Source: Candidatus Borkfalkia faecipullorum
GTDB lineage: Bacteria > Bacillota > Clostridia > Christensenellales > Borkfalkiaceae
NCBI GenBank assembly: GCA_019114245.1
Contig: DXFX01000071.1
Span: forward strand, 1,681-65,680
DNA length: 64,000 bases
Direction of reading: 5' to 3'
Part shown: piece after piece, positions 1 through 55,561 of the stretch
Numbering within the stretch: position 1 is the stretch's first letter
How the letters are laid out: every line of letters begins with the position of its first letter
The notes under the pieces: generated by a model
The model's database searches: none
What the model was told of the DNA's origin: nothing
What the model saw: only the letters and a program-made list of their open reading frames with translations
Translations under genes and position numbers: made by a program

Positions 1-1
1 C

Positions 2-1306: not shown

Positions 1307-1312
1307 GACGGC

Positions 1313-1347
1313 ACGGCCGCGCCTATGTGCGCGGCCGGTAAAATTTT
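1313..1347 (+). terminator. Stem-loop after glnS (cggccgcgc/gcgcggccg) with a weak T tail
   Basis: 9-bp GC stem read directly, followed by gtaaaatttt. Confidence 0.55.
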
Positions 1348-1381
1348 CTGGCCGCAGAAAATCACTTTTTTGCGCGTGGGA

Positions 1382-1410
1382 TTGACAAACCCGCTTTTTA
1401 CAGCTATAAT
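1382..1410 (+). promoter_or_regulatory. Consensus sigma-70/A promoter TTGACA-17-TATAAT
   Basis: TTGACA at 1382-1387, 17-nt spacer, TATAAT at 1405-1410, about 70 nt upstream of the 1482 start. Confidence 0.75.
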
Positions 1411-1481
1411 AGTAATAAGCACAGTTCCGTTTATGCGGAAACAAAATAATTGCAGAAAGATCAACAGGGAGAAACAACATC

Positions 1482-2555
1482 GTGAAGATCTGTAAAAATT
1501 GCGGAAAGGCGACCGGCGAGGACAAAGTCCGCTGCCCTTACTGCGGTTATCTTTTTGAAGAGGACTTAGACAGCGTTCTCAGCAAGATGAAAAGCAATCT
1601 GAACGCTTACAAGGAGGAGGTTGCCTCCGCGCAGCCCGCGGCCCAACCCGCGGCGCAGTCTGCCGTACAGCCTGCGGTGCAGCCTGCGGCCCAGCCTGCC
1701 GCACAGCCCGCGGCGGAAGCTTCTCAGAAGGAGCGGTTCGAGCTTCTTACCGAGGTGGCGCAGCTGAAAGGGGAACTCAAGGCTCTGCACGGGGAGATCG
1801 ACCGCATGAACGGGATGCAGTCGCGCTATTACGCGGCTCCTGCGGCGGAACCTGCCGCCCAGAAGAGCGCGGAACAGCCCGCGGCTCAGCCTGCACCGCA
1901 GGCGGCCCAGCCCGTCTACTATGCGCAGACCTATCCGCCCATGCCGTATGCCGTACAGCAGCCGTACGCGGCTCCTGCGGCGCCCGCGGCACAGAGGAGT
2001 GCGCCCGTTTCCAAAAAACGCACGCGCAGCGCCAACAGGATCGTCATTTCCGTCATCGCTCTCATCATGCTGGGGCTTTCTATTGCTTTCTTCTTTACGC
2101 CGTGGATGAAGGGTACATACGAATTCAGCGGGCTGGATTCCCTCAAATACCTGTATGAAAAGCTGTTCAACAACGGCGGCAACGAGCGGATGCAGGCATT
2201 CCTCGACTACATCAGGACGGTGGAGTTTGCGCAGAACGAGATCCTCGCATCCGTCTGCCGCACAGTCTGCTACCGCGTTGTGGAATTCGGGATCCCCGTG
2301 TACTTTGTGCTTCTGGTACTCGGATTCCCGCTCCTGTTCAGTATGTTCGGCAAAGTGCGCGGCAAGGGCTGGCACCTTTTCTGTGCCTGGACTTCCTTCA
2401 TCGTGGCGGGCATCCTCACCCTGATCTTCTGGTGGGTAGGGCAGTTCAATGCGCTCACCACTCTTTTCCTGGTCGGTGCAGGCGCAAACTTCGTCCGCGT
2501 TCTCTTCCTCCTGTTCTTCAAGGGGAAAAAAACGAATAACGGCGGACTCGAATAA
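1482..2555 (+). CDS. Zinc-ribbon protein with a Pro/Ala/Gln-rich repeat region and a C-terminal multi-TM domain
   Basis: GTG start after AGGGAG. N-terminus CKNCG..x..CPYCG (zinc ribbon), AAQP repeats, hydrophobic C-terminal half. Confidence 0.7.
   Translation: MKICKNCGKATGEDKVRCPYCGYLFEEDLDSVLSKMKSNLNAYKEEVASAQPAAQPAAQSAVQPAVQPAAQPAAQPAAEASQKERFELLTEVAQLKGELKALHGEIDRMNGMQSRYYAAPAAEPAAQKSAEQPAAQPAPQAAQPVYYAQTYPPMPYAVQQPYAAPAAPAAQRSAPVSKKRTRSANRIVISVIALIMLGLSIAFFFTPWMKGTYEFSGLDSLKYLYEKLFNNGGNERMQAFLDYIRTVEFAQNEILASVCRTVCYRVVEFGIPVYFVLLVLGFPLLFSMFGKVRGKGWHLFCAWTSFIVAGILTLIFWWVGQFNALTTLFLVGAGANFVRVLFLLFFKGKKTNNGGLE
1629..1715 (+). repeat. In-frame 12-nt tandem repeat encoding (A-A/V-Q-P/S), about 7 copies
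   Basis: gcgcagccc gcggcccaaccc gcggcgcagtct.. translates to AQPAAQPAAQSAVQPAVQPAAQPAAQPAA. Confidence 0.85.
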
Positions 2556-2564
2556 TTCAGAGTT

Positions 2565-3164
2565 ATGAAAATTGCTATTGACGTCATCTTTATCCTGTTT
2601 CTGCTGGTGATGGCCGTTGTCGGGTACAGAAAGGGATTCCTGAACAGGGCCTGGTGGCTGATGGACATTGTCATCATCGTCTTTTTGGGGATGAACTTTG
2701 AACCCAAGCTGGCACAGCAGTTGGGGGACGCGGGGCTTACCGCCGCCATAGAAGGCGCCCTTTCGGGGGCGGCGGGCGGGGATACCCTGTTCGGCAAACC
2801 GGTTGCGGACATTGCGCAGATCGCGGTATCCGTCATCGTGTGGGCGGGGCTTGCCATCGTCGTGGCGATCGTCATGGCCATCGTCAAGGCCATTTTGAAA
2901 AGTCTGCGCAAATTTCTCTCTTTCCGCGTCATCGACGGCGTTCTCGGGGCAATGTACGGCATGGTCATCACGCTGGTCGTGCTTCTCGTCATCGGCGCCG
3001 TTGCGGGAACTTTTACCGACTTTGCGCCCGTCTCTTCCGCGTACGATCTGTGCGGGCAGACGCATTTGTTCCGCTACATTTTCGGGGCAAATCCCTTCCA
3101 GGAAACCATCAACGCGCATTTCCCTCTCGGCTCGTGGATCTACGGAGCCCTGCAATCCAAATAA
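2565..3164 (+). CDS. CvpA-family membrane protein
   Basis: 199 aa with 4-5 hydrophobic segments. The N-terminus IDVIFILFLLVMAVVGYRKGF is typical of the CvpA family. Confidence 0.65.
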   Translation: MKIAIDVIFILFLLVMAVVGYRKGFLNRAWWLMDIVIIVFLGMNFEPKLAQQLGDAGLTAAIEGALSGAAGGDTLFGKPVADIAQIAVSVIVWAGLAIVVAIVMAIVKAILKSLRKFLSFRVIDGVLGAMYGMVITLVVLLVIGAVAGTFTDFAPVSSAYDLCGQTHLFRYIFGANPFQETINAHFPLGSWIYGALQSK

Positions 3165-3169
3165 TTTTA

Positions 3170-3208
3170 CGGCCGCGGCGCAAGCGCTGCGGCCGCATTT
3201 TTGCTTTT
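3170..3208 (+). terminator. Rho-independent terminator after the cvpA-like gene
   Basis: cggccgcggcgc/gcgctgcggccg stem followed by atttttgctttt. Confidence 0.7.
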
Positions 3209-3289
3209 CGGGAAAAAATGCAATTTTTAATGAAATCGCTTTACAAATCAGCGCGGACTTGTTAAAATAGTATATATTAAATGCGACGA

Positions 3290-3510
3290 CAGAGGACAAG
3301 CCTCCGCGATCCGCTTTTTCAGAGAGCTCCCGCAAGGTGAAAGGGGAGCAAGGCAGGGCGCGGCAGAGTATCCCCTCTCAGCACGCGGGGCGAAACGGCA
3401 AAAGGGAGTAGTCTTGCGCGCGGTCTTTCTTCCGCGTTATCAAAAAGGGCGTATGTTTGTATGTTTTGGTGGTCCCCTCTTAGTTTTCCGAAAACGAGAG
3501 GGGATTTTTT
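3290..3510 (+). promoter_or_regulatory. T-box leader (tRNA-Ile sensing) controlling ileS
   Basis: AGAGAG box (3321), GGTGAAAG, AGTAGT, F-box-like CGCGTTA, and T-box-like TTGGTGGTCCCC (3467-3478) overlapping the terminator stem cccctct/gagagggg plus T-run (3474-3510). Candidate ATC specifier at 3370-3372. Confidence 0.7.
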
Positions 3511-3548
3511 AAATCGTAAAAATTGTCAGAACCGCAAGGAGAAGAACA

Positions 3549-6500
3549 ATGTCAGAGAAAAAGCTTTATTCCAAGGTAGACACGGCGATGAACTTTGTCG
3601 AGCGCGAAAAGGAAGTGATCGCGTTCTGGGAAAAGGAGCACGTGTTTGAGGACAGCGTGAAGGAGAGAGAGGGCGGAGAGGAGTTTTCTTTCTACGACGG
3701 CCCGCCCACGGCAAACGGCAAGCCGCACATCGGCCACATTCTCACCCGCGTGATGAAGGACATCATTCCCCGCTATCAGACGATGAAGGGCAAGCACGTC
3801 CTGCGCAAAGCGGGCTGGGACACGCACGGTCTGCCCGTCGAGCTGGAAGTGGAAAAGATGCTCGGCATGGACGGCAAGCAGGACATCGAAAAATACGGCA
3901 TCGAGCCGTTTATCAAAAAGTGCAAGGAAAGCGTCTGGAAATACAAGGGCGAATGGGAAAAAATGTCCGAACGCGTGGGTTACTGGGCGGACATGGAAAA
4001 CCCGTACGTCACCTACGACGACAAGTACATCGAGTCTGTCTGGTGGGCGCTGAAAGAGATCTGGAAGAAGGGGCTCCTGTACAAGGGGCATAAGATCGTC
4101 CCTTACTGCCCGCGCTGCGGCACGGCGCTCTCCTCGCACGAGGTGGCGCAAGGCTACAAGGACGTCAAGGAAACGTCCGTGTTCGTGCGCTTCAAGAGAA
4201 AGGGACTGGAAAATTCCTACTTCCTCGCCTGGACGACTACGCCGTGGACGCTCCCTTCCAACGTCGCGCTCTGCATGAACGCGGACGAGGACTATGCGGA
4301 GATCGAGGCGGAGGACGGCACGCATTACGTTCTGGCGCAGGCGCTCCTGCCCACTCTGTTTGAAAATTACAAGCTCCTGTCCGTCAAAAAGGGCAAGGAG
4401 TACGAATACGCGGAATACGAACCGCTCTTCACCTATGCGCAGGGCACTTTCCGCGAAAAGGCGTACTACGTCGTGTGCGACGGCTACGTCACGCTGACGG
4501 ACGGCACGGGAATCGTCCACATTGCGCCCGCCTTCGGCGAGGACGACTACCGCGTGGGCAAAAAGTATTCGCTGCCCGTGGTCAACCTGGTGGACGAGCG
4601 CGGCTGTTTTGTGCCTGCCGTCAAGGAATTTGCGGGTACGTTCGTCAAAAAAGCGGACAAAGGCATCATTCAGATGCTCAAAGAAAAGGGGCTGTTGTTC
4701 AAGGAAATGGTGTACGAGCACAGCTATCCCCATTGCTGGCGCTGCGATACGCCGCTGCTGTACTATGCGCGCGAAAGCTGGTTCATCAAGGTGACGGCGG
4801 TCAAGGACGAGCTGATCAAGGCGAACAATTCCGTTCACTGGATGCCCGATACCATCCGCACGGGCCGCATGGGCAACTTCCTGGAAAACGTCATCGACTG
4901 GGGCCTTTCCCGCGACCGTTACTGGGGTACGCCTCTGCCCGTCTGGGTCTGCCCGGACTGCGGCAAGGTACACGTCATCGGCAGCAAGCAGGAACTGAAA
5001 GAGCTGTGCGGCATCGAAGGGGACATCGAACTGCACCGCCCGTACATCGACAACTGCACCTTCAAGTGCGAGTGCGGCGGCACCATGAAGCGCACCCCCG
5101 AAGTCATCGACTGCTGGTTCGATTCGGGTTCCATGCCCTTCGCGCAGTACCATTATCCGTTTGAAAACAAAGACCTGTTCGACGAAACTTTCCCCGCCGA
5201 TTTCATTTCCGAGGCGGTCGACCAGACGCGCGGCTGGTTCTATACGCTGCTCGTCATTTCCACCATTCTGTTCGGAAAGGCTCCCTTCAAAAACTGCATC
5301 GTGCTGGGACACGTCAACGACAAAAACGGCGTCAAGATGTCCAAGCACAAGGGCAACGTCGTCGATCCCTGGAGCGTGCTCGACAAGCAGGGCAGCGACG
5401 CCGTCCGCTGGTATTTCTACACCTCCAGCGCGCCGTGGATCCCGTCCCGCTTCTATCCCGAAGCGGTGTCCGAGGCACAGCGCCGCTACATGGGCCCGCT
5501 GTGGAATTCCTACGCGTTCTTCGTGCTGTATGCGGAGATCGACAAGTACGATCCTTCCAAATACGATCTGAAAAAGTGCAAACTTACGCTGATGGACAAG
5601 TGGATCCTGTCCAAGCTGAACACCCTCGTCAAGACGGTGGACGAAGATCTGAGCGAATACGACATCACGGACAGCGCCCGCGCCCTGCAGGATTTTGTGG
5701 ACGTCCTGTCCAACTGGTACGTCCGCCGCGGCAGGGAACGCTACTGGGGCAAAGAGATGACGGAGGACAAGGCGGCGGCTTACACCACGCTGTACACCGT
5801 CCTGGTCACGCTTGCCAAGCTCACCGCGCCGTACACGCCTTTTATTGCAGAACAGATGTACCGCAACCTCGTTCCCAATTTCTATAAAGACGCACCCAAA
5901 TCGGTGCATATGTGCTCCTTCCCCGTCTGCGACGAAACGGCCATCGATCCCGACCTCGAAAAGGGTATGGATTCGGTGCTGGAAGTCGTGGTGCTGGGCA
6001 GGGCGGCGCGCAATGCGGGATCGCTCAAAAACCGCCAGCCGCTCGCCAACATGATCGTCGCCACCGAGCGCGACCTCGACCTCAACGAGGAACTGCAGGG
6101 CGTCATCCTGGACGAGCTGAACATCAAGAAAATGACGCTCAGCAAGGACGCGTCCGCGCTGATCACCTATAAACTCAAGCCGCAGATGAAGACGCTGGGG
6201 CCCAAGTACGGCAAACTTCTGGGCGGGATCCGTTCCTTCCTCGAAACGTGCGACGGCGCCGCCGTCGTGGCCGCCGTCAGAAACGGCGGAACGTTCAGAA
6301 CGGAGATCTCGGGCGCGGAAGTGGAACTGACCGAGGACGACCTCCTCATCTCCACCGAGAGCGCGGCGGGCTACGTCTCCGCAAGCGACAAGGGCATCAC
6401 CGTGGCTCTGAATACCAAGCTGACCCCCGAACTCATCGACGAGGGGATCGGGCGCGAACTCATCTCCAAACTGCAGACCATGCGCAAGGAAGCGGGCTTT

Positions 6501-6689
6501 GAAGTGACCGACCGCATCGACGTGTACTACACGGCGGAAGGGCAGACAAAGCAGGTGCTCGCATCGCACAAGGATGCCATCGCCGCCGTCGTCCTCGCGG
6601 ACAGCGTGCAGGAGGGCAGCGCCGAAGGCTACACCAAGGATTGGGAGCTGGGCAAGGACAAAGTGACGCTCACCGTCGTCAAGAGATAA
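3549..6689 (+). CDS. ileS: Isoleucyl-tRNA synthetase (type 2, 1046 aa)
   Basis: PPTANGKPHIGH (HIGH motif), KMSKHKGN (KMSKS motif), and editing-domain length consistent with IleRS. Confidence 0.95.
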   Translation: MSEKKLYSKVDTAMNFVEREKEVIAFWEKEHVFEDSVKEREGGEEFSFYDGPPTANGKPHIGHILTRVMKDIIPRYQTMKGKHVLRKAGWDTHGLPVELEVEKMLGMDGKQDIEKYGIEPFIKKCKESVWKYKGEWEKMSERVGYWADMENPYVTYDDKYIESVWWALKEIWKKGLLYKGHKIVPYCPRCGTALSSHEVAQGYKDVKETSVFVRFKRKGLENSYFLAWTTTPWTLPSNVALCMNADEDYAEIEAEDGTHYVLAQALLPTLFENYKLLSVKKGKEYEYAEYEPLFTYAQGTFREKAYYVVCDGYVTLTDGTGIVHIAPAFGEDDYRVGKKYSLPVVNLVDERGCFVPAVKEFAGTFVKKADKGIIQMLKEKGLLFKEMVYEHSYPHCWRCDTPLLYYARESWFIKVTAVKDELIKANNSVHWMPDTIRTGRMGNFLENVIDWGLSRDRYWGTPLPVWVCPDCGKVHVIGSKQELKELCGIEGDIELHRPYIDNCTFKCECGGTMKRTPEVIDCWFDSGSMPFAQYHYPFENKDLFDETFPADFISEAVDQTRGWFYTLLVISTILFGKAPFKNCIVLGHVNDKNGVKMSKHKGNVVDPWSVLDKQGSDAVRWYFYTSSAPWIPSRFYPEAVSEAQRRYMGPLWNSYAFFVLYAEIDKYDPSKYDLKKCKLTLMDKWILSKLNTLVKTVDEDLSEYDITDSARALQDFVDVLSNWYVRRGRERYWGKEMTEDKAAAYTTLYTVLVTLAKLTAPYTPFIAEQMYRNLVPNFYKDAPKSVHMCSFPVCDETAIDPDLEKGMDSVLEVVVLGRAARNAGSLKNRQPLANMIVATERDLDLNEELQGVILDELNIKKMTLSKDASALITYKLKPQMKTLGPKYGKLLGGIRSFLETCDGAAVVAAVRNGGTFRTEISGAEVELTEDDLLISTESAAGYVSASDKGITVALNTKLTPELIDEGIGRELISKLQTMRKEAGFEVTDRIDVYYTAEGQTKQVLASHKDAIAAVVLADSVQEGSAEGYTKDWELGKDKVTLTVVKR

Positions 6690-6692
6690 ATT

Positions 6693-7550
6693 ATGCGTAT
6701 CGCAGAAAACTGGAAGGATTATACCATTCTCGCCACGGGCGACGGGTATAAGCTGGAACGCTGGAAGGACGTCGTTCTGCTCCGTCCCGACCCGCAGGTC
6801 ATCTGGCAGGCGCAGCGCGATCTGTTTTCCTATCCCGAGATCAACGCCGTGTACCGCCGCAGCGACAAGGGCGGCGGCGCATGGGAATTCCGCAAGCCCA
6901 TGCCCGAAGAATGGACGGTCAGCTACCGCGACCTCACGTTCAAGATCAAGCCGATGGGCTTCAAGCACACGGGGCTGTTCCCCGAACAGGCGGTCAACTG
7001 GGACAGAATGTCCGCTCTGATCGCGGGTTCGGGCAGGAAAATCAAGGTGCTCAACCTGTTTGCCTACACGGGCGGCGCCACCGTCGCCTGCGCCAAGGCG
7101 GGCGCGGAGGTCGTCCATGTGGACGCCGCCAAGGGCATGGTGGAGCGCGCGGGAGAAAACGCCCGCCTCTCGGGTATCCACAGCGGGATCCGCTACATCG
7201 TGGACGATTGCAAAAAGTTTGTCCGGCGGGAGATCCGCCGCGGCAACCGCTACGACGCCGTCATCATGGATCCGCCTTCGTACGGCAGGGGCCCCGGCGG
7301 CGAACTGTGGAAGATCGAGGACAGCCTGTACTCCTTTGTGCAGCTGTGCACGCAGGTGCTTTCGGAAGATCCGCTCTTCTTTCTCATCAACAGTTATACC
7401 ACGGGATTGCAGCCCATGGTTTTGCACAACATTTTAAAACTCTGCCTTTCGGGGCGGAAGGGAAAAATCGACGCCTATGAGGTAGGGATCGCCACGCAAG
7501 AGGGCATCCCTCTGCCCTGCGGCGCGGGAGGAATGTTCGTCAATGAATGA
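6693..7550 (+). CDS. Class I SAM-dependent (rRNA-type) methyltransferase
   Basis: VLNLFAYTGGATVACAKAGA..VHVD (SAM-binding motif I) and VIMDPPSYGRG (DPP motif). Confidence 0.75.
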   Translation: MRIAENWKDYTILATGDGYKLERWKDVVLLRPDPQVIWQAQRDLFSYPEINAVYRRSDKGGGAWEFRKPMPEEWTVSYRDLTFKIKPMGFKHTGLFPEQAVNWDRMSALIAGSGRKIKVLNLFAYTGGATVACAKAGAEVVHVDAAKGMVERAGENARLSGIHSGIRYIVDDCKKFVRREIRRGNRYDAVIMDPPSYGRGPGGELWKIEDSLYSFVQLCTQVLSEDPLFFLINSYTTGLQPMVLHNILKLCLSGRKGKIDAYEVGIATQEGIPLPCGAGGMFVNE

Positions 7551-8238
7551 CCTTACCATACTTTATGAGGACAATCACATCATCGTGGTGTTAAAACCGC
7601 AGGGAGTGCCTTCCTGCGGGGATGAGAGCGGGGATGACAGCCTGCTCGAAGCGGTGCGCCGCTATGTCAAAGTGACATACGAAAAGCCGGGAAACGTGTA
7701 CATCGGGCTGATCCACCGCCTCGACCGTCCCACGGGCGGCGTGATGGTGTTTGCCAAGACCAGCAAGGCGGCGTCCCGCCTGGCCGAGCAGATGCGCGGC
7801 GGCGATTTTGAAAAGCAATACCTCACCGTTCTGGTGGGTTCGCCCGCGGAAAAGCGCGCCACGCTCGTCAACTATCTGAAAAAGAATCCCGTCAACAACA
7901 TGGTATACATCTGTCCGCAGACGACGGACGGCGCCAAAATGGCTTCCCTCGAATACGAAGTTCTCGAAGAGAAGGGGAGCTGTTCGCTGGTGCGCGTCAA
8001 GCTCCACACGGGCAGGACGCACCAGATCCGCGTGCAGATGGCGGGCATCGGCACGCCCGTCTACGGGGATATGCGCTACGGCGGGGAAAACGCCAAAAAG
8101 GGCGGGCTCGCCCTGTGGGCATACTCTCTCTCGTTCACCCATCCCGTCACCAAGGAGCGGATGCGCTTCATGGCGGAACCGCCCGTGGACGCTTCGCCGT
8201 GGAAGTATTTCGACGTGGAGAAAGCGCTCAAATTGTGA
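7543..8238 (+). CDS. RluA-family pseudouridine synthase
   Basis: HRLDRPTGGVMVFAKT catalytic Asp motif and TGRTHQIRVQMA. Confidence 0.85.
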   Translation: MNDLTILYEDNHIIVVLKPQGVPSCGDESGDDSLLEAVRRYVKVTYEKPGNVYIGLIHRLDRPTGGVMVFAKTSKAASRLAEQMRGGDFEKQYLTVLVGSPAEKRATLVNYLKKNPVNNMVYICPQTTDGAKMASLEYEVLEEKGSCSLVRVKLHTGRTHQIRVQMAGIGTPVYGDMRYGGENAKKGGLALWAYSLSFTHPVTKERMRFMAEPPVDASPWKYFDVEKALKL

Positions 8239-8307
8239 CGGACAGGAAAAAATTTCCTTTCCTGCACAAGAAAAGAGTAAAATTTTGTTGAAAGCAAAAA
8301 AATGCGT

Positions 8308-8336
8308 TTGACAAAAACCCCTTTATAAGGTACAAT
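8308..8336 (+). promoter_or_regulatory. Promoter TTGACA-17-TACAAT
   Basis: Hexamers read directly. Located upstream of the 8416 gene. Confidence 0.7.
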
Positions 8337-8415
8337 AAACAGGTACAAGCATTTTTGAGGGCAAAGCGCGCAATGTGCGCCGCGCCCATTCAATATGAGG
8401 ATTGGAGCAAAGGGA

Positions 8416-10584
8416 ATGAACAAACAGAAAGTCAGCATACTTGCATTGATCGTTGCGTTTGCGCTCTGCGTGGCGGCAGCTTGCCTGTCCGTCGGGTTTA
8501 TGGGCGCGGGTGCTGCGGCAAACGTTACCTATTCGGGCGTGTTTACCACAAGCGGCGCAACCAAAGAGGACAGCGAGGACAATTACCTCACCTACAAGCT
8601 GGGCGAAGGCGGCACCGTCACCCTGCGCAAAAACCTTGCGCTGAAATGGTACTCCTTTGCAGACGCCGAAAACAAGACGGTCACCGATGCCGGCGCGGCG
8701 CAGTACTTCACTCTCAAACTCTCTCTGGCAGATTCCGTTTTCACCTCCTTCACGGTGGCGATGGAAAGCACGCAGATGAGCATGAGCAAGGAAGGCAAGA
8801 CGGTCAATGAGGTCGTGTTCACGCCTGCCGACGGCGGAAAAGTCAATGTTTCCGTCAACGATGCGGAGGGCGCAGTCGCTCTTTCCGCCGCCGATCTCAC
8901 CATTTCCTTTACGGGCGACGACGGCAACGGCAACTTCGACGTCAGCGTTTCCGACGGCACCGATACGGTGACGGGAACGTTTGCCAACGTCGGCAAATAT
9001 TATGCGCAGTATGCTTCTTCTTCCGCAACCACGCCCATCACGCCGCTCACCTTCAAGGCGGAAGGAAAGGACGTGCTGTTCTCGGTCAAGGAGCTCAACG
9101 GACAGAGCTTCCTGCTCGACGCGGATGAGAAGATTTCGGACAACGTGGCTCCCGCTCTGGTCATCAACAGCGAGATCAAACAGCTCGTTCTCGGCGAACA
9201 GATCGATTTCGACTATGTCGCCATCGATGTCTGCTCCACCTCCATCACCACCACGCGCTACTATCTCGTGGAGGGGATGCCCGTCATGGACGGCGAAGAG
9301 GAAGTGACGGCAAAGTTTGACGAAGACGGCAAACTCGTCGGATACAACGATTTGGATACGGACAAGCGCTTCAACGAGACGGATTTCCCCGACAACAATA
9401 TCGACGGCGGCGTGCTGAGCATTGCCTTCCGTCTGACGGACGGCAACTCCAACAGCGGCTACTACTTCATCGAATGGTACGCGGGCGGCACGCTGAACAT
9501 GGTCAACCCCAACAGCGTGGAAACCACCCCTGAAGTGCAGTTTGTTTCCACCACGGACAACGCCGTGGACGCGGACAACAAATATGCCGACAACATCACG
9601 GCATACCAGAATGCCGTCACGCAGGCCGCTCTGAAAGACGGCAAGAGCATCCAGGTCGGCAGCGGCGCTTACTACTACATTCCTTCCCTCAAAGCATACA
9701 TTTCCGACGATTCCTGCGGCTACACGGATATGAAGTTCACCGTGTATTACCGCACCAACACCAGCGATACCCAGACCGTTTCGGGTGAATACGACGATCT
9801 GCGCATCCCCGTCAGCACGGAAGGGGATTACGCGTTCCGCGTCGTTCCCACCAACAGCGCGGGCAACGTGATGATCGGCCTCATCGAACAGGCGGACGGA
9901 ACGTACCGTCCCGAAGAAGTCTCTTCTTCCAACGTCTGGGATGTGAAAAACCTGGTCACGTTTACCTTCAGCGTCCGCTATTACGGCGCATCCATCGAGG
10001 AGCCGGAAGAGGCGGAAACGGGTTACAGAGACGCAACGTACACCGTCGAAGATTTCGAGATCATCGCGCTCAGCGGCTACAAGACGGAATACAAACTCTT
10101 CCTGTTTGAAGCCAACAGCGGCGTCACCGTCTCCTCCATTTCCCAAATCAAGGAAGCGGAACAGGCGGACGGCACCAACACCCTCGGCACCTGGAAAGAG
10201 ATCTCCAAGTACGATTCCTCTCTCGCCGATGACGAAGGCGACAACCTGTACAACTGGAATCCCGACAACTCCCTCAGCTTTGTGCCGCAGGAGATGGGAT
10301 ATTACAAAGTGCAGGTGACGGTGGACGATCAGAGCGGCATCACCCAGAACGAGGACGGTTCCTATCCCTCCGCTTACCAGATCATCGGTATCACGGCGGA
10401 AGCGGTCGTCATTCCCGGCACCACCTACTGGCTGCAGAACAACATCCTTTCCGTGGTCTTCCTCGGCGTCGGCGTGCTCTGCCTCATCGGCATCGTCGTC
10501 CTGCTGGTCGTCAAGCCCAAGGACAAGGTCGCAGAAGACAAGGCGCGTGAAGAAGAACTCAAAAACAAACGCGCAGGCAGATAA
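8416..10584 (+). CDS. Large secreted/surface protein with an N-terminal signal sequence and a C-terminal TM anchor (about 722 aa)
   Basis: MNKQKVSILALIVAFALCVAAACLS signal-like N-terminus. C-terminal ILSVVFLGVGVLCLIGIVVLLVV followed by a charged tail. The ORF track starts at 8395; the ATG at 8416 is preferred because GGAG lies upstream. Confidence 0.7.
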   Translation: MNKQKVSILALIVAFALCVAAACLSVGFMGAGAAANVTYSGVFTTSGATKEDSEDNYLTYKLGEGGTVTLRKNLALKWYSFADAENKTVTDAGAAQYFTLKLSLADSVFTSFTVAMESTQMSMSKEGKTVNEVVFTPADGGKVNVSVNDAEGAVALSAADLTISFTGDDGNGNFDVSVSDGTDTVTGTFANVGKYYAQYASSSATTPITPLTFKAEGKDVLFSVKELNGQSFLLDADEKISDNVAPALVINSEIKQLVLGEQIDFDYVAIDVCSTSITTTRYYLVEGMPVMDGEEEVTAKFDEDGKLVGYNDLDTDKRFNETDFPDNNIDGGVLSIAFRLTDGNSNSGYYFIEWYAGGTLNMVNPNSVETTPEVQFVSTTDNAVDADNKYADNITAYQNAVTQAALKDGKSIQVGSGAYYYIPSLKAYISDDSCGYTDMKFTVYYRTNTSDTQTVSGEYDDLRIPVSTEGDYAFRVVPTNSAGNVMIGLIEQADGTYRPEEVSSSNVWDVKNLVTFTFSVRYYGASIEEPEEAETGYRDATYTVEDFEIIALSGYKTEYKLFLFEANSGVTVSSISQIKEAEQADGTNTLGTWKEISKYDSSLADDEGDNLYNWNPDNSLSFVPQEMGYYKVQVTVDDQSGITQNEDGSYPSAYQIIGITAEAVVIPGTTYWLQNNILSVVFLGVGVLCLIGIVVLLVVKPKDKVAEDKAREEELKNKRAGR

Positions 10585-50347: not shown

Positions 50348-50354
50348 CAATCAA

Positions 50355-50382
50355 AGCTCAGACAAAGTCTGGGCTTTTTTTT
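50355..50382 (+). terminator. Rho-independent terminator
   Basis: agctcagac/gtctgggct stem followed by tttttttt. Confidence 0.85.
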
Positions 50383-50405: not shown

Positions 50406-50434
50406 TTGCAATCTGGTTTTTTATATGATATAAT
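50406..50434 (+). promoter_or_regulatory. Promoter TTGCAA-17-(TGa)TATAAT dedicated to the TIR-HD gene
   Basis: Read directly. GAGGTG RBS precedes the ATG at 50502. Confidence 0.65.
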
Positions 50435-50501
50435 AAAATCTGCGGCGAAGGGAGGAAAAGTCTCTCTTTTTTCAAAATCGGCGCAGACAGTGAGGTGAAA
50501 T

Positions 50502-53459
50502 ATGGCGGCGGAACGGAGAATTTTTATCAGTTATTCGTCAAAGGAACTGGATATCGCGGCAAAAGTATGCGATTATCTGGAGCGCAACGGCATTTTGTGC
50601 TGGATCGCGCCGAGGAATGTGGACGCGGGCGGCAACTATGCTTCGCAGATCGTGCGGGCGATCAAGCAGTGCGACATTCTGGTGCTGCTCGCTTCGCGCA
50701 GTACCAATGCGTCGGGCCACGTCAGCAACGAGGTCAGCATTGCATTCGACAACAAAAAGACGATCATTCCCTTTAAATTGCAGGATTTCGAGTTTACGGA
50801 CGAATACCTGTATTTTCTGGGCAGAAAGCACTGGATCGAGACGCACGGAGACGTCAATGCGGGGCTGGAAAAGCTGCGCGCCACCGTGCTGAGCGTTATC
50901 GGCGAACAGGCGGCGCCGACCGCCGCGGTGCCGCAGGAACCTCTTTTCCGCGCAAGGCCCGCCGCGCCCGCAGAACCCGCCCCGACCGAAGAGCGGCAGG
51001 GCAGCCGCCACACGCGCGAAAGCATTGTCGCTTCCCTGATCGCGGGGTGCGAAAAATATCCCTATTATCTGTACAAAAAGGTAAACACGCCCGAACGGTA
51101 CGAAAACTTCCTGCAGCACGCGCTCGTCATGTTTTCGGAAACGGTGAGCGTGTATCGGTACAACAAGTGTCTTTCCGATTGCGAAAACATCATCGACCTG
51201 CTGGTGGAAAATCTTTCGGGAGAGGCGGAATGCTGCGTGCAGGTGCAGGGTCTGCCAGGCGGCGCAAAGAACATGATCCTGCAGCTCGTGTTTTACAAAA
51301 TGCTGGAAAATTTCCGCACGGGAAAATCCGACGTCCTGCCTTTTTACCTTTCGGCGAGCTATTACGAAAAGATCCCTTACAACCCCGACAACGTTTACGG
51401 GCAGATGAAGGACGTGATCGGCAAGGACTGCAGGGAATACTTTGCCTATTTGCAGGAGAATCCGACCGTGCGCCCCGTGCTGCTCATCGAGGCGATCCGC
51501 GAGCACAACGTCGCGCGCTTTTCGCCCGAAAACGCCGTGGCGGAGCTCTGGTCGCGGTATAAAAAGTTCAACAGGGCGTGCGCCATCGACGTGGGGCTCA
51601 TCAAAAACCGCGCGAGGCTGAAGCGCGTCATTCCCATCGCGGGAGACGCCAAGGGGTACACACTCGTGGTGAACCAGATCCCCATTGACGACAAAAACGC
51701 CTGCCTGCGCCTGATCGGAAGCGTGTTCGCCATGTACGGCTACGATCTGGACCCGCAGGAAGCGTATTCCTTCCTCAGGGCGATGCAGTATCCCGCCGTG
51801 GACATTTTCCTCGTGCGACTCATCGCCACGGAAACCATATCCGTGTACAACCGCGACGACATCCGCCTGACGGACATCTACGAAAAATTTGCCCTTTCCG
51901 AACTCTACGGCGATGCGGAACAGCTGAAAAAAGTTTCCCGCGAACTGACGGCGTATGTCTTTGACCAGTCTTACACGCTGCCGTCCACGGGTTACAATGC
52001 CGCCATGTGGTCGCTGCCGCACAAGCACAATACCTATCTCGAATTTCTCATTGCCTACTACTTTGTCTACCGCATCGAGCACTATAAGGAATATTCCGAG
52101 CACAGATTTTTCGCCATCGTGCTCACGGCAATGTCCAATCACTTTGTCGTCTCTTTCCTCAAAGAAAACTATACCCTGCAGGAGATCCTGCTGCATTTCA
52201 TCCTGGAAAATTACGAAAGCTTCGATATGCAGCAAAAGGTGAACGCCGTGTACTGGCTGGGCAGGATCACCTTTAAAAATCTGGCGGGGGAGGCGGTGGA
52301 ACTTCTCACCCGCGAGTTTGACAGGATGCTCCCGCTCGTCAAGACCAACAACAGGAGCACGCAGGAAAATTACGACAATCATTTTATGTTCCGCTCGGTG
52401 TGTATCGGGCTCTTGTATCAAAGCAAGATGAAGGCGATGGACGAATACCTGTGCGTGGTGGTCACCAACGACATTGCCAACGCCATCAACAGGGGCGCCA
52501 CCATCGAGTATTTCGGCGACAATTACCAGATGGTCGCGCACGATTCGTACTATCTGGACAGCGATCTGAACCTGGGCGAACAGGCAATCAAGATCCTGAT
52601 CAGCCGCATCGAAAACGCGCTCACGGGAAACACGGGCAAGTTTGTGGAAAACAATCTCGTCACCCTGCTCACGCTTCTGCAATCGCGCATCCAGAACGAC
52701 AGGACGGTACTGAAATACGATGTACGTCCCTACGTTTCCAAAGCGATGGAACTGCTTTCTCTCTACCGCAAGCGCCCGCAGAACATCGTTTCCTCCAAGC
52801 TGATGTACTATTTCCAGAGCGTGGAAGAGGATTTTCACTACTATCTCGATCATGCCCGTTTCGACATCGGGCCGATCATTTACAACAGGTACAGGCGGCT
52901 CAAACAGGTCAAGCGCACCCAATGGCTGAAACACGACATTTACGATCCCGAAAGCGTTGCCGAACACAGTTACAGCGCCTGGATGCTCGCCATGTTTTTC
53001 CTGCCCGAAGAATTGCAGATGGAAGGGTACTGCAAGAGGGAGGTCCTGGATATGCTCCTCATCCACGACATGGCGGAAGCCGCCGTGGGGGACGCGCGCA
53101 CCAGCCTTTCCGAACAGAAAAAGGAACTCAAAGAGCAAAACGACGTTCTGCGCAAACTCTTTCTGAAAGGGACGTATCCGGACATCGCCAATCTCTCCTA
53201 TTACTATAACATCTGGACGGGGTACTACAACGGCATCAATGCCAACGCCAAGGTCGCGCGGGACATCAATCTTTTACAGTCCGTCTATACCTTCTGCGAA
53301 TATTATTGCACCTTCCCCGATCACTTTACAAAGCAGGACGCCGCAGCGTGGATCCGCGAAAAGAACAACCTCAAGACGGAAGTGGGGTACCAGCTGTTCG
53401 AGCGGCTCATCCTCAAAAACAACGATTTCAGGCGGCTGTTTGAGGAGATAGAAATGTAA
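50502..53459 (+). CDS. TIR domain / degenerate STAND(NACHT-like) core / helical region / YfbR-type HD domain fusion protein (985 aa)
   Basis: aa 5-115 RIFISYSS..ILCWIAPRNVDAGGNYASQI..SGHVSNEVSIAF (TIR). aa 250-257 GLPGGAKN, aa 325-332 PVLLIEAI, aa 504-521 SLPHKHNTYLEFLIAYYF (STAND-like). aa 817-864 ESVAEHS..LLIHDMAE..VGDA (HD). Confidence 0.75.
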   Translation: MAAERRIFISYSSKELDIAAKVCDYLERNGILCWIAPRNVDAGGNYASQIVRAIKQCDILVLLASRSTNASGHVSNEVSIAFDNKKTIIPFKLQDFEFTDEYLYFLGRKHWIETHGDVNAGLEKLRATVLSVIGEQAAPTAAVPQEPLFRARPAAPAEPAPTEERQGSRHTRESIVASLIAGCEKYPYYLYKKVNTPERYENFLQHALVMFSETVSVYRYNKCLSDCENIIDLLVENLSGEAECCVQVQGLPGGAKNMILQLVFYKMLENFRTGKSDVLPFYLSASYYEKIPYNPDNVYGQMKDVIGKDCREYFAYLQENPTVRPVLLIEAIREHNVARFSPENAVAELWSRYKKFNRACAIDVGLIKNRARLKRVIPIAGDAKGYTLVVNQIPIDDKNACLRLIGSVFAMYGYDLDPQEAYSFLRAMQYPAVDIFLVRLIATETISVYNRDDIRLTDIYEKFALSELYGDAEQLKKVSRELTAYVFDQSYTLPSTGYNAAMWSLPHKHNTYLEFLIAYYFVYRIEHYKEYSEHRFFAIVLTAMSNHFVVSFLKENYTLQEILLHFILENYESFDMQQKVNAVYWLGRITFKNLAGEAVELLTREFDRMLPLVKTNNRSTQENYDNHFMFRSVCIGLLYQSKMKAMDEYLCVVVTNDIANAINRGATIEYFGDNYQMVAHDSYYLDSDLNLGEQAIKILISRIENALTGNTGKFVENNLVTLLTLLQSRIQNDRTVLKYDVRPYVSKAMELLSLYRKRPQNIVSSKLMYYFQSVEEDFHYYLDHARFDIGPIIYNRYRRLKQVKRTQWLKHDIYDPESVAEHSYSAWMLAMFFLPEELQMEGYCKREVLDMLLIHDMAEAAVGDARTSLSEQKKELKEQNDVLRKLFLKGTYPDIANLSYYYNIWTGYYNGINANAKVARDINLLQSVYTFCEYYCTFPDHFTKQDAAAWIREKNNLKTEVGYQLFERLILKNNDFRRLFEEIEM

Positions 53460-53484: not shown

Positions 53485-53521
53485 AAAAAACGGCGTCACT
53501 GCTTGCAGTGACGCCGTTTTT
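53485..53521. terminator. Bidirectional terminator between convergent genes
   Basis: aaaaaa-cggcgtcactg/cagtgacgccg-ttttt. Confidence 0.9.
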
Positions 53522-53567
53522 ATACTACGTTCTCTTGTTTTCAGGACAAAATCCCCGCGCGGTGCGC

Positions 53568-54305
53568 TCAGAAAGGCCGCCCGTTTTTTTCGGGCAAAAA
53601 TTTCCAGTACCGCACGGGCATATAGCCCTTCATCTGCTTTTCGTGCGGGCGCTGGGCAATGTTCACGCTCTCGTAATACTGTTTCCAGAGATTCTGAAAG
53701 TTTTCCTCATCGGGGGAAAGGGGAACGTCCACCTTTTCCTCGGTCTGTACGATCACGCAGTCTTTGCCGTTCCAGAGGGCGGCTTTCCTGCGCGAAAGGT
53801 CGTGCATGACAAAGGGCTGACCTCCCAGCCTGCGCAGAAAATGGGGGAGGATGAGGTCGAGAATGTCGTTGTCTGGGGTGAAAGGGGCGTACCATATGCC
53901 GTTTGCACCTTCCATAAAGCGCAGAAATCCCTTCATGCGGTGCGCTTCCAGCGTCACCTTGCCGCGCAGATCCCACGCGGCGGAAACGCTCGCGTCCGCG
54001 CGCCTGTCCCGCACGGGCGCTCTTTCCTGCACGATGCGCCGTATATACCGCAGGGCGACCATCTCGCGCTCGGGGGAGCAGGAGCGCAAAATCAGTCCGA
54101 TGTCGTCCAGCGAATGCCTGTCGTATTGCAAAAGCCGCCTCTTTACGCGGTCGGACTTTTCTTTTTCCTCCTGCACGCAGACGATCTGCGCGCCCAGCGG
54201 CAGCTGGAAAGAGCGGGAGAGGAGGAGACAGCTCTTGTCCGTGCAGGCGGAAAACACGGCGGTATAAAAGCAGTTTTCGCTGCCGTCCGTAACGTAGACG
54301 TTCAC
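53568..54305 (-). CDS. DUF4130 / TIGR03915-like putative DNA-repair protein (partner of the radical SAM enzyme)
   Basis: MNVYVTDGSENCFYTAVF N-terminus and MPVRYWKFLPE C-terminus are typical of the family. GTGA overlap with the upstream gene. Confidence 0.7.
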   Translation of the reverse strand: MNVYVTDGSENCFYTAVFSACTDKSCLLLSRSFQLPLGAQIVCVQEEKEKSDRVKRRLLQYDRHSLDDIGLILRSCSPEREMVALRYIRRIVQERAPVRDRRADASVSAAWDLRGKVTLEAHRMKGFLRFMEGANGIWYAPFTPDNDILDLILPHFLRRLGGQPFVMHDLSRRKAALWNGKDCVIVQTEEKVDVPLSPDEENFQNLWKQYYESVNIAQRPHEKQMKGYMPVRYWKFLPEKNGRPF

Positions 54306-55561
54306 AGCTGCCCCGTGAGAACGCTGGCAGAGGTGTCCAGCGTGGAGAACATGGAAAGCTGTTCGCTGGTCTGCGAGTGCTCTTCCAGCGCCAGCATACG
54401 GCGCACGGCGGAAGTGTTTTCGCTGCCGTAAAACTTTCCGCCGCAGGTGATAAAGTGCTGTGCGCGCTTGAGCACGATGCGCATTCTCGCAAGGTCCTCA
54501 AAGCGCAGGGCGCCGAACCTGCGCGCTTTCATGATCTTGTACGCGCCCAGCGTGCCTATGCCGGGTACGCGCAGCAGCATTTCCAGGGGCGCCGTGTTGA
54601 TCTCCACGGGGAAGCACTGCATATTTTTCAGCGCCCAGGCGCACTTGGGGTCGTACTCCTGCGGCAGGTTTTCTCCCTCGCCCGCGATCTCCTCGGCGGA
54701 AAACCCGTAATAGCGCATCAGCCAGTCCGCCTGGTACAGCCTGTGTTCGCGCAGCAGTCCCGTGCAGGTGTCGGGCAGAAGGGAATGCCGCACCACGGGC
54801 ACGTAGGAGGAATAATACACCCTTTTGAGGGAAAACTTTCTGTACATCGCCTGCGAAAGGCGCAGGATCTGCCCGTCCGCTTCGGGGGAAGCTCCCACGA
54901 TCATCTGCGTCGTCTGCCCTGCGGGCAGAAATTTGCCCTTTCCCTTGCCCTTGTGTTCGGCGGTAAACTCGCTCTTTTGCAGGGCAAGCTGTTTCATGGG
55001 CAAAAGCAAGCTTTCCCGCGTCTTTTGCGGGGCAAGCAGTTTCAGGCTCCTTTCGGAGGGGAGCTCCACGTTATAGCTCATGCGGTCCACCGTGCGCGCC
55101 GCGCGCGTGAGCAGGAGGGGGTCGGCATAGGGGATGCCTTTGAGATGAATGTATCCGTTAAAGCGGTACTCTTTTCTCAGTTTTTCCGCCGTTTCCACCA
55201 GCCGTTCCATGGTGTAATCGGGGTTTTTCGTCACGGCGGAGGAGAGGAACAGCCCCTCGATATAGTTGCGCCTGTAAAACGCCATCACCAGCTGACAGAT
55301 CTCGTCGGGGGTGGCCTCCGCGCGCGGGACGTCCGCCTCCGCGCGGTTGGGGCAATACAGGCAGTTGTAGATGCACTTGTTGCTGAGCAAAATTTTCAAA
55401 AGTGAAATGCAGCGCCCGTCGGGTGTGAACGAGTGGCAGATCCCGCCGATCGAGGCGTTCCCCAGCCCGCCCTTTTTGTTGGCGCGGGCAGAGCCGGACG
55501 AGGAACAGGATACGTCGTACTTTGCGCTTTCCGTCAGAATTTTCAGCCGTTCCGCTTCCAT
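54302..55561 (-). CDS. Putative DNA modification/repair radical SAM protein (TIGR03916-like) with a C-terminal HhH
   Basis: CIYNCLYC CxxxCxxC cluster motif. LLRVPGIGTLGAYKIMKARR helix-hairpin-helix. AGGAGG RBS. Confidence 0.75.
   Translation of the reverse strand: MEAERLKILTESAKYDVSCSSSGSARANKKGGLGNASIGGICHSFTPDGRCISLLKILLSNKCIYNCLYCPNRAEADVPRAEATPDEICQLVMAFYRRNYIEGLFLSSAVTKNPDYTMERLVETAEKLRKEYRFNGYIHLKGIPYADPLLLTRAARTVDRMSYNVELPSERSLKLLAPQKTRESLLLPMKQLALQKSEFTAEHKGKGKGKFLPAGQTTQMIVGASPEADGQILRLSQAMYRKFSLKRVYYSSYVPVVRHSLLPDTCTGLLREHRLYQADWLMRYYGFSAEEIAGEGENLPQEYDPKCAWALKNMQCFPVEINTAPLEMLLRVPGIGTLGAYKIMKARRFGALRFEDLARMRIVLKRAQHFITCGGKFYGSENTSAVRRMLALEEHSQTSEQLSMFSTLDTSASVLTGQL

Follow-up and report, generated by a model that had tools for sequence, protein, structure and literature searches.

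A TIR, NACHT-like and HD_3 domain protein of Candidatus Borkfalkia faecipullorum: a probable stand-alone NLR-like defence protein

The gene and its locus

The window analysed here is the whole stretch of 64,000 nucleotides from Candidatus Borkfalkia faecipullorum (GenBank assembly GCA_019114245.1, contig DXFX01000071.1, positions 1,681 to 65,680). It contains an open reading frame (ORF) with an ATG start (50502..53459, +, stop codon included) that encodes a protein of 985 residues, an assignment supported by domain searches, homologs and the ratio of nonsynonymous to synonymous substitution rates (dN/dS). The protein consists of an N-terminal TIR domain, a NACHT-like NTPase core, a helical array and a C-terminal HD_3 phosphohydrolase domain. 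This four-part architecture had been proposed in a first-pass annotation made by a model from the sequence alone, and profile searches, an AlphaFold2 model and Foldseek comparisons all bear it out. We consider the protein likely to be a stand-alone NLR-like (NACHT-derived STAND) defence or conflict protein, and it belongs to an uncatalogued NACHT/STAND plus HD_3 family with about 200 clusters at 50% identity.

The gene looks like an independent transcription unit, because it has its own promoter-like site and terminators on both sides. A strong terminator-like hairpin (50353..50377, +), with an 11-bp stem followed by a T-run, closes the upstream ABC-transporter operon and insulates the gene. 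The promoter-like site, TTGCAA-17-TATAAT with an extended -10 TG (50406..50434, +), agrees with the consensus at 10 of 12 positions, which is a consensus match only and not proof of function. The Shine-Dalgarno sequence GAGGTG (50492..50497, +), read directly from the DNA, is located 4 nt 5' of the ATG. Beyond the stop codon, direct reading gives the hairpin GGCGTCACTG-cttg-CAGTGACGCC (53492..53522, assigned to neither strand), with a GC-rich 10-bp stem and A-run/T-run flanks; it lies between two convergent genes and is likely to be a bidirectional terminator. The convergent pair on the 3' side (53568-55561, -) encodes a DUF4130 protein (245 residues) and a radical-SAM protein (419 residues). 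The pair is kept at the same place in a sister species (locus L066) and looks like housekeeping DNA-metabolism genes, apparently unrelated to the TIR/HD_3 gene. An antisense ORF of 866 residues (50538-53138, -) overlaps nearly the whole gene, in all likelihood as a shadow ORF that arises from the GC-rich coding region.

The TIR domain and the linker

The TIR domain (residues 5–133; 50514..50900, +) is defined by its profile match, its conservation and Foldseek. Pfam TIR_2 (PF13676) matches residues 7–125 with an E value of 8.8e-19 and a score of 68.6 bits (cut-off 28), covering 121 of the 122 profile positions. The putative catalytic glutamate noted in the first-pass annotation, E77 (50730-50732) in the motif HVSNE, is invariant in all 54 homologs of an alignment that reaches down to 43% identity and underlies the residue counts given below for close homologs. 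From the motif pattern, E77 is the putative positional counterpart of SARM1 E642. Foldseek against the PDB matched the fold to the TIR domains of SPARTA, SARM1 and MAL; a single-sequence search of the PDB with the TIR domain returned only chance matches to antibodies and a partial alignment with Cat1, and did not place E77 residue by residue. Compared with the sister-species ortholog, which is 89% identical, the TIR domain has a dN/dS of 0.031. The domain is a candidate NADase acting through E77.

The TIR domain is followed by a disordered Pro/Ala-rich linker (residues 134–170; 50901..51011, +), also recognized at first pass. Residues 136–167 have a predicted local distance difference test (pLDDT) score below 50 and are the sole disordered stretch of the AlphaFold2 model. 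The linker is also the most variable segment of the protein, with a column entropy of 3.3 bits and a dN/dS of 0.32.

The NACHT-like NTPase core

The AlphaFold2 model was built from the 54 homologs, with a mean pLDDT of 86.5 and a predicted template-modelling score of 0.72. A moderately conserved helical region (residues 171–243; 51012..51230, +), with model helices at residues 172–185 and 197–214, precedes the NTPase domain. The diverged NACHT-type nucleotide-binding domain (NBD; residues 244–395; 51231..51686, +) is defined by the model fold, the motif columns, the series of motifs described below and Foldseek. The NOD module continues with helices and the winged helix (residues 396–530; 51687..52091, +), a part marked by conserved residues. 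Residues 215–395 are modelled as an α/β structure, with helices from there to residue 790 and then the HD fold. The deviant Walker A motif GLPGGAKN (residues 250–257; 51249-51272, +) is located between strand 245–250 and helix 256–272, and the deviant Walker B motif LLIEAIREH (residues 327–335; 51480-51506, +), within the segment PVLLIEAIRE(H), lies on strand 324–333.

These two segments and a downstream histidine had been read in the first-pass annotation as the Walker A, Walker B and winged-helix His motifs of a NACHT-type NTPase. The positions stand, with H509 as the histidine, but neither Walker A nor Walker B is canonical. Residues G250, P252, G253, K256, N257 and R333 are invariant. The consensus GxxxxGK[ST] is not matched, as A255 replaces the glycine (Ala in 50 of 54 homologs) and N257 replaces Ser/Thr (54 of 54), with K256 kept. 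The Walker B signature D[GAS]hDE, by which NACHT is defined (Kibby et al., 10.1101/2022.07.19.500537), is likewise absent from the window protein, which reads E330-A-I-R333-E334; the first column is Glu in 43 and Asp in ten of the 54 sequences, and the invariant R333 takes the place of the first of two acidic residues after Walker B. The winged-helix motif is of the NACHT type: H509 (52026-52028) is invariant, the position of T511 is Thr or Ser in 48 of 54 homologs, W503 is invariant and H507 is found in 49 of 54. Across the wider family the winged-helix consensus is WxLxxxHxSxxDFLIA.

The middle 660 residues matched no model in Pfam, NCBIfam or PADLOC. Among the profiles suggested at first pass, TIR_2 and HD_3 were matched above their cut-offs and Pfam NACHT was not reached by the window protein. 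Foldseek comparison of the TIR and NTPase part with the PDB nevertheless identified a NOD-type fold, with matches to RPP1 (E = 1.3e-5), NLRC4 (3.3e-4), NLRP9 (4e-4) and Avs3 (8e-4), and also to ORC1 and RFC; these matches do not separate NACHT from NB-ARC. The relationship to NACHT comes from the relatives. The middle region retrieves, with E values down to 1e-10 and beyond, proteins with canonical NACHT motifs, and five of 47 distant relatives reach the Pfam NACHT profile (best E value 4e-7; P0202, at 30.2 bits, exceeds the cut-off of 26.7). The motifs form a series. The most distant relatives combine GxxGxGK[ST] with DGIDE, DGADE or DGCDE, an intermediate group combines GxxGS[Y/E/D]KN with DG[IV]R[DN], and the clade of the window protein combines GLPG[S/C/G]AKN with [E/D]A[IV]RE. 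Three strictly conserved changes thus occur together, namely loss of the glycine before the lysine, replacement of Ser/Thr by Asn, and replacement of the first acidic residue after Walker B by Arg. The dN/dS of the NBD is 0.057. On this sequence evidence the domain is clearly NACHT-derived but divergent and, as judged from its motifs, the nucleotide pocket of the window's clade is remodelled rather than decayed.

The helical array and the HD_3 domain

A conserved helical array (residues 531–790; 52092..52871, +) joins the NOD module to the HD domain. It is modelled as all-helical with a pLDDT of about 90 and has no match in Pfam. Its column entropy of 1.49 bits shows that it is not hypervariable, and its dN/dS is 0.072.

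The C-terminal domain (residues 791–985; 52872..53456, +) is an HD_3 phosphohydrolase domain of the YfbR/HDDC2 type, as indicated by profile, structural match and invariant ligands. Pfam HD_3 (PF13023) matches residues 799–955 with an E value of 4.9e-24 and 85.5 bits against a cut-off of 22.5, and the YfbR-like profile (PF12917) just passes (26.8 against 25.9). The solved structures nearest to it in sequence are those of human HDDC2 (E = 6.7e-10), of archaeal YfbR-like proteins and of the phage dATPase DatZ, and Foldseek aligned the domain with HDDC2 at a target TM score of 0.77–0.79. The metal ligands H822, H855, D856 and D921 are invariant in all 54 homologs, as is E817. Three of these ligands (H822, H855 and D856) had been named at first pass together with D864; the latter is not a metal ligand and belongs to the catalytic motif HDxxExxxGD, the fourth ligand being D921 in the segment ARDIN. 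Of the other residues in this YfbR-type motif, E859 is present in 43 and D864 in 45 of the 54 homologs, and both are present in the window protein. A conserved pair, R805 and W808, lies upstream of the HD motif. The dN/dS of the domain is 0.037. Fold and motifs predict a 5'-(deoxy)nucleotidase or dNTPase activity. In about six of 47 distant relatives the HD dyad has degenerated but the domain is still there, so the HD fold is retained even where catalysis is lost.

The family and its interchangeable N-termini

About 150 full-length homologs with 43–99% identity were found, nearly all with TIR_2 and HD_3 and from metagenome-assembled gut Clostridia. Chance similarity is ruled out by the profile E values, by these homologs and by the overall dN/dS of 0.064. 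A decaying or spurious ORF was also considered and rejected, given this dN/dS value and the 117 near-identical cluster members of the window protein. A pattern scan of 185,579 GTDB species representatives gave 47 loci, a pattern-limited lower bound, in Lachnospiraceae, Christensenellales, Oscillospiraceae, Acutalibacteraceae and Ruminococcaceae. The scan returned no match of about 99% to the window gene, the nearest being a fragment of the 89%-identical sister-species gene on a 2,028-bp contig (L047). Both search patterns occur in the window gene itself; the representative of its own species may lack the gene, lie outside the GTDB collection or be masked.

An exhaustive phmmer search was run with the unannotated middle alone (residues 166–795) as the query. 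At 50% clustering it gave 198 representatives, of which 101 had E values of 1e-10 or lower, and the start of the middle module ranged from residue ~50 to ~630 among the matches. In the Pfam scan, HD_3 was present in 45 of 47 distant relatives. Their N-termini carry TIR_2 (12), PNP_UDP_1 (four), SIR2_2, PRTase-CE or Metallophos domains, and match PADLOC effector models for ThsB, SAVED-TIR, CBASS PN-superfamily and endonuclease effectors, PRTase_III-A (the CRISPR III-A PRTase), LmuA, ThsA and nitrilase. All PADLOC matches of the relatives are confined to N-terminal residues 3–318, with none in the short forms described below and none in the NACHT-like/helical/HD core.

Sorting of the full-length representatives with local hidden Markov models built from the alignment placed the NBD–helical–HD core in essentially every one of them and distinguished three architecture classes: short forms of ~830–880 residues without an N-terminal domain, proteins of ~960–1035 residues with a TIR domain or an unknown N-terminus of ~240 residues, and proteins of ~1080–1150 residues with a PNP, PRTase or Metallophos N-terminus. 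In the short forms the NACHT motifs are canonical, and the only enzymatic domain that can be recognised is an intact HD domain. On all four readable short-form contigs, a small gene without a Pfam family abuts or overlaps the start (L062, 3604-4212; L063, 5514-5999; L064, 4199-4858; L065, 4403-4993); it encodes 161–219 residues with one or two N-terminal transmembrane segments. These small membrane proteins are probably effectors in trans. The possibility that they are split-off N-terminal domains was rejected, as BLAST against the N-termini of fused members found no homology. The partners of L062 and L065 are visibly homologous to each other. Close homologs that lack TIR (L030-L032) have an N-terminus of ~190 residues without a Pfam family and are directly preceded by a gene for a CorA-like membrane protein (for example L031, 8092-9507; PADLOC CorA, E = 3e-12). 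Five long members (P0107, P0110, P0125 and P0140 with 1211–1466 residues, and P0003 with 1215) contain extra Pfam-less segments, a region of ~235 residues before TIR and/or an extension of ~250 residues after HD, which could be further domains or gene-call fusions.

The NACHT-like, helical and HD_3 parts are therefore the invariant unit of the family, and the output module, fused or in trans, is interchangeable. Since HD_3 is kept whatever the effector, the HD domain accompanies the switch and not TIR.

Selection and genomic context

The 89%-identical ortholog occupies the same locus in the sister species. Measured against it, dN/dS is 0.064 for the whole gene and 0.03–0.07 in each of the TIR, nucleotide-binding, winged-helix, helical and HD parts, indicating strong purifying selection, and column entropy is 1.4–1.7 bits in all structured domains. 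Neither the entropy nor the per-domain dN/dS reveals a hypervariable sensor of the bNACHT01/Avs kind, and a conserved, small-molecule-like cue fits these uniformly low values. The dS is 0.92, like that of the flanking genes, and both dN/dS and dS are indistinguishable from those of the flanking housekeeping genes. Presence/absence polymorphism was sought through the exact DUF4130 neighbour, and the gene was present in all eight contexts; L055, a frameshift-ridden assembly, was left out.

The first-pass annotation had tied an immune role to variable or defence-associated homolog contexts. In this species the gene has one housekeeping-flanked site that is not a defence island; across genera the context is varied and includes TIR and other defence neighbours. 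Over 40 loci no conserved partner gene was found, and the neighbourhood differs in almost every genus. Examples are a solitary insertion between FTHFS and uvrBA, a type IV secretion system/integrative and conjugative element (ICE) region with a SIR2 gene (one homolog), and a locus adjoining a TIR-LRR gene together with a large Tubulin_2/transglutaminase module. Among 129 immediate neighbours from 38 loci, eight carry TIR_2 and about 15 match PADLOC models at E < 1e-8 (MADS mad2/3/8, PifA, QatA, SspF, PbeA, NsnB, REase and PDC-S20); the remainder are ordinary metabolic and transport genes. The short forms adjoin an OLD-family ATPase, serine recombinases and a RES toxin.

TIR genes beside homologs are of the TIR-methyltransferase, TIR-Sel1/TPR and TIR-LRR types (L003, 13014-14456, -; L015, 7985-9370; L019, 2712-4973; L048, 12980-14935; L052, 12946-14949), pointing to small islands of TIR genes in the genomes of gut Clostridia. 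In at least eight loci (L052, at 1-9923, L003, L008, L013, L014, L036, L041 and L048), a module of five or six genes lies directly upstream of the homolog. It encodes a Tubulin_2 protein (~1250 residues), proteins of ~636, ~1093–1346 and ~379–414 residues, a transglutaminase-core protein (~442 residues) and a protein of ~590 residues with a faint RyR match; most of its members have no family in Pfam or PADLOC. Among the large neighbours that recur upstream (clusters c2-c5), almost all likewise lack a match in Pfam and PADLOC. The module may be an uncharacterised conflict system.

Proposed function

The NLR/STAND immune-type assignment made at first pass is supported by the NACHT motifs and Pfam matches of the distant relatives, by the swapped effectors and by the structural matches to RPP1, NLRC4, NLRP9 and Avs3; the same modelling and Foldseek comparison recovered HDDC2 and the SPARTA, SARM1 and MAL TIR domains. 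In the mechanism that we propose, the protein would rest as an auto-inhibited monomer until its C-terminal helical/HD module reads an infection-associated cue. The NACHT-like switch would then oligomerise and cluster the TIR domains, leading to E77-dependent hydrolysis of NAD+, and the loss of NAD+ would arrest the cell (abortive infection). For the HD_3 domain we envisage binding, and probably turnover, of a ligand of the 5'-(deoxy)nucleotide type whose level goes up in infection. The steps from sensing to arrest are drawn by analogy with TIR-NLR, bNACHT and Avs proteins, and defence as the function, oligomerisation, NADase activity, the nature of the ligand and the way in which the HD domain acts are all inferences. 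Taken as a whole, the scheme of an NLR-like abortive-infection protein with a TIR output and an HD sensor or regulator seems to us evenly balanced between right and wrong.

A sensor or regulator role for HD is favoured because the domain is constant together with the switch while the recognised effectors vary, and a conserved small ligand is suggested because the C-terminal half is conserved and not diversifying; retention of the domain in the roughly six of 47 relatives with a degenerate dyad also speaks for this role. As a specific assignment, a nucleotide-directed sensor or regulator falls a little short of an even chance. Certain CARF domains degrade their own activator, and the same logic would apply to an HD domain that turns over its ligand. 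Going further, we tentatively suggest that HD_3 senses a small nucleotide danger signal, for example deoxynucleoside monophosphates (dNMPs) released when the chromosome is degraded, or a modified nucleotide specific to the phage; turnover would set the threshold and reset the switch. Given the coordinated changes in the NACHT pocket of the TIR clade (Gly to Ala/Tyr/Glu/Asp, Ser/Thr to Asn, acidic to Arg), oligomerisation may now be governed by whether HD has bound its ligand and no longer by NTP exchange at the P-loop. A precedent for a dNMP danger signal, m6-dAMP, which triggers the PUA-Cal-HAD defence system as outlined in 10.64898/2026.01.15.699771, supports HD as a sensor.

Several observations weigh against this interpretation. 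About 85% of members keep the HD catalytic residues, a level of conservation that is compatible with an effector no less than with a sensor, and sensing could in fact be done by the helical array. With Walker A and Walker B in non-canonical form, a classical NTP-driven switch is, from the motifs, not assured. In this species the gene is inherited vertically with housekeeping flanks and is fixed between an amino-acid ABC transporter and the DUF4130/radical-SAM pair, which is atypical of defence. The family was not found in the phage and plasmid collections searched, where only generic HD matches were obtained. The neighbours look enriched for defence genes relative to an estimate, as given in PMC13434031, that about 1.5% of genes are anti-phage, a comparison that has no matched control set.

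The strongest alternative, which we regard as possible though clearly the less probable, is a dual effector, in which the helical array (residues 531–790) senses, the constant HD_3 domain dephosphorylates or hydrolyses dNMPs or deoxynucleoside triphosphates (dNTPs) and so starves phage replication, and TIR, PNP, SIR2 or the like is a second, add-on effector. As HD belongs to the constant core, the first-pass suggestion of HD as a second effector is only one of two live readings. The dual-effector reading agrees with the invariant metal ligands, with an HDxxExxxGD motif that is intact in most members across ~20% identity, with the short forms, whose only recognisable enzyme is an intact HD domain beside canonical NACHT motifs, and with the presence of DatZ in the HD_3 superfamily. 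Nucleotide-depleting defence effectors are established in CARF-HAD phosphatases (PMC12715507) and, as outlined in PMC13519002, dGTPase/SAMHD1-like HD enzymes, and C-terminal effectors are known in bNACHTs (10.1101/2022.07.19.500537). Effectors are normally the swapped part, however, and here HD is constant while the N-terminal or in-trans parts are swapped; the loss of the dyad with retention of the domain in about six of 47 relatives also disagrees with an effector. Moreover, YfbR-type 5'-deoxynucleotidases act on dNMPs and are a weak means of depleting dNTPs.

An unlikely alternative is a housekeeping role in gut Clostridia: the protein would regulate nucleotide or NAD metabolism and have no more in common with immune proteins than its domains. 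This would account for the one fixed locus in all contexts seen and in the sister species, for dN/dS and dS values like those of the flanking housekeeping genes, and for the ordinary metabolic genes that flank many homologs. It is at odds with the patchy distribution (47 loci among 185,579 species representatives, as a pattern-limited lower bound), with a neighbourhood that changes in almost every genus and holds no conserved partner, with N-termini swapped among known defence effectors and membrane-protein partners in some members, and with homologs that lie beside TIR, MADS, Pif, Qat, Ssp, OLD and RES genes or in ICE and recombinase contexts.

The first-pass idea that HD_3 processes, matures or quenches a TIR-derived ADP-ribose-type product, which is compatible with the joint presence of TIR and HD in the window protein and ~150 close homologs and with the ability of HD-family enzymes to hydrolyse nucleotide signals, is rejected as highly improbable, because HD_3 is retained in 45 of 47 relatives whatever the effector and is equally conserved with PNP, SIR2, PRTase-CE, Metallophos/endonuclease, nitrilase and membrane-protein outputs, which make no TIR product, and because its motif set is of the YfbR/HDDC2 5'-nucleotidase type.

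Characterised bacterial NLR-like proteins mostly sense phage proteins through repeat domains. If the reading of the window protein as an NLR-like defence protein with a constant HD domain is true, the family would provide either an NLR-type switch that reads the nucleotide pool or a new, constant nucleotide-depleting effector. It lives in uncultured gut Clostridia, in which defence is poorly charted, and escapes current defence-finding models. The strictly conserved non-canonical P-loop of its TIR clade is in addition a natural experiment on the rewiring of STAND switches.

Comparison with known systems

As the first-pass annotation had supposed, no catalogued system has the architecture of the window protein. 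PADLOC v2.0.0 and NCBIfam matched it at the TIR level only, with PADLOC E values of 1e-7 or weaker and an NCBIfam Thoeris ThcB4 score of 24.4 bits against a cut-off of 220. The protein is not part of a Thoeris system by gene content, as no ThsA-type partner (SIR2/SLOG or similar) was found in its neighbourhood in the window and none is conserved across the 40 loci. A NACHT/STAND plus HD_3 architecture was not described in the literature searched.

The nearest known groups are single-gene STAND proteins. Like the bNACHT proteins (Kibby et al., 10.1101/2022.07.19.500537), the window protein has an N-terminal effector (TIR, SIR2, PNPase or nucleases in that group), a central NACHT part with a winged-helix His and a C-terminal region, and its distant relatives show D[GAS]hDE and match Pfam NACHT. 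The domain list of the bNACHT survey contains no HD phosphohydrolase, whereas a YfbR-type HD_3 domain is constant at the C-terminus of the present family; in addition, the window's clade has deviant Walker motifs (GLPGxAKN and [E/D]A[IV]RE), and the window protein itself reaches no NACHT profile. Resemblance to Avs and other antiviral STAND proteins (Gao et al.; PMC13581612) lies in the swappable N-terminal effector on a conserved core with a STAND NTPase, the C-terminal sensing part, the proposed activation of the effector by oligomerisation and the Foldseek match to Avs3. Avs sensors, however, are large domains, built of repeats or shape-complementary, that bind phage proteins, whereas the present family has a conserved helical array and an enzyme fold that are not hypervariable, and no Avs/AVAST model of PADLOC matched the window protein or its relatives. 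The main text of the 2026 survey of 589 STAND clades (PMC13581612) does not mention HD, and the family may be included there unnamed.

With plant TIR-NLRs (RPP1 and ROQ1) and the Rst_TIR-NLR of P2/P4 hotspots (PMC9122126), the window protein shares an N-terminal TIR domain (with E77 as its putative catalytic Glu), a STAND NOD module and an expected NADase output on oligomerisation, and the tetramer core of RPP1 is its best Foldseek match (E = 1.3e-5). The likeness is at the fold level, with ~11% identity: plant TIR-NLRs have an NB-ARC clade NOD and leucine-rich repeat and C-JID sensors, whereas the window protein is NACHT-derived with an HD_3 C-terminus. Its PADLOC matches are confined to the TIR domain, a comparison made without checking whether PADLOC v2.0.0 includes a TIR-NLR model. 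The HD_3 domain itself resembles YfbR, HDDC2 and DatZ (PF13023; 5'-deoxynucleotidases and a phage dATPase) in its fold, its H..HD..D ligands, its HDxxExxxGD motif and the upstream R..W pair; those proteins are free-standing with ~180–215 residues, whereas in the window protein it forms the C-terminal part of a STAND protein of 985 residues. PUA-Cal-HAD, CARF-HAD and dGTPase are precedents for nucleotides as danger signals and for phosphatases or HD enzymes as effectors, by analogy of logic only, as these families are unrelated and none combines STAND with HD_3; each of the two roles considered for HD_3 thereby has a precedent. Judged by its domains and motifs, the window protein would work like TIR-NLR, bNACHT and Avs proteins yet is a canonical member of none of these groups, because it lacks the NACHT form of Walker A and Walker B, corresponds to no PADLOC system model and carries an enzyme fold in the sensor position.

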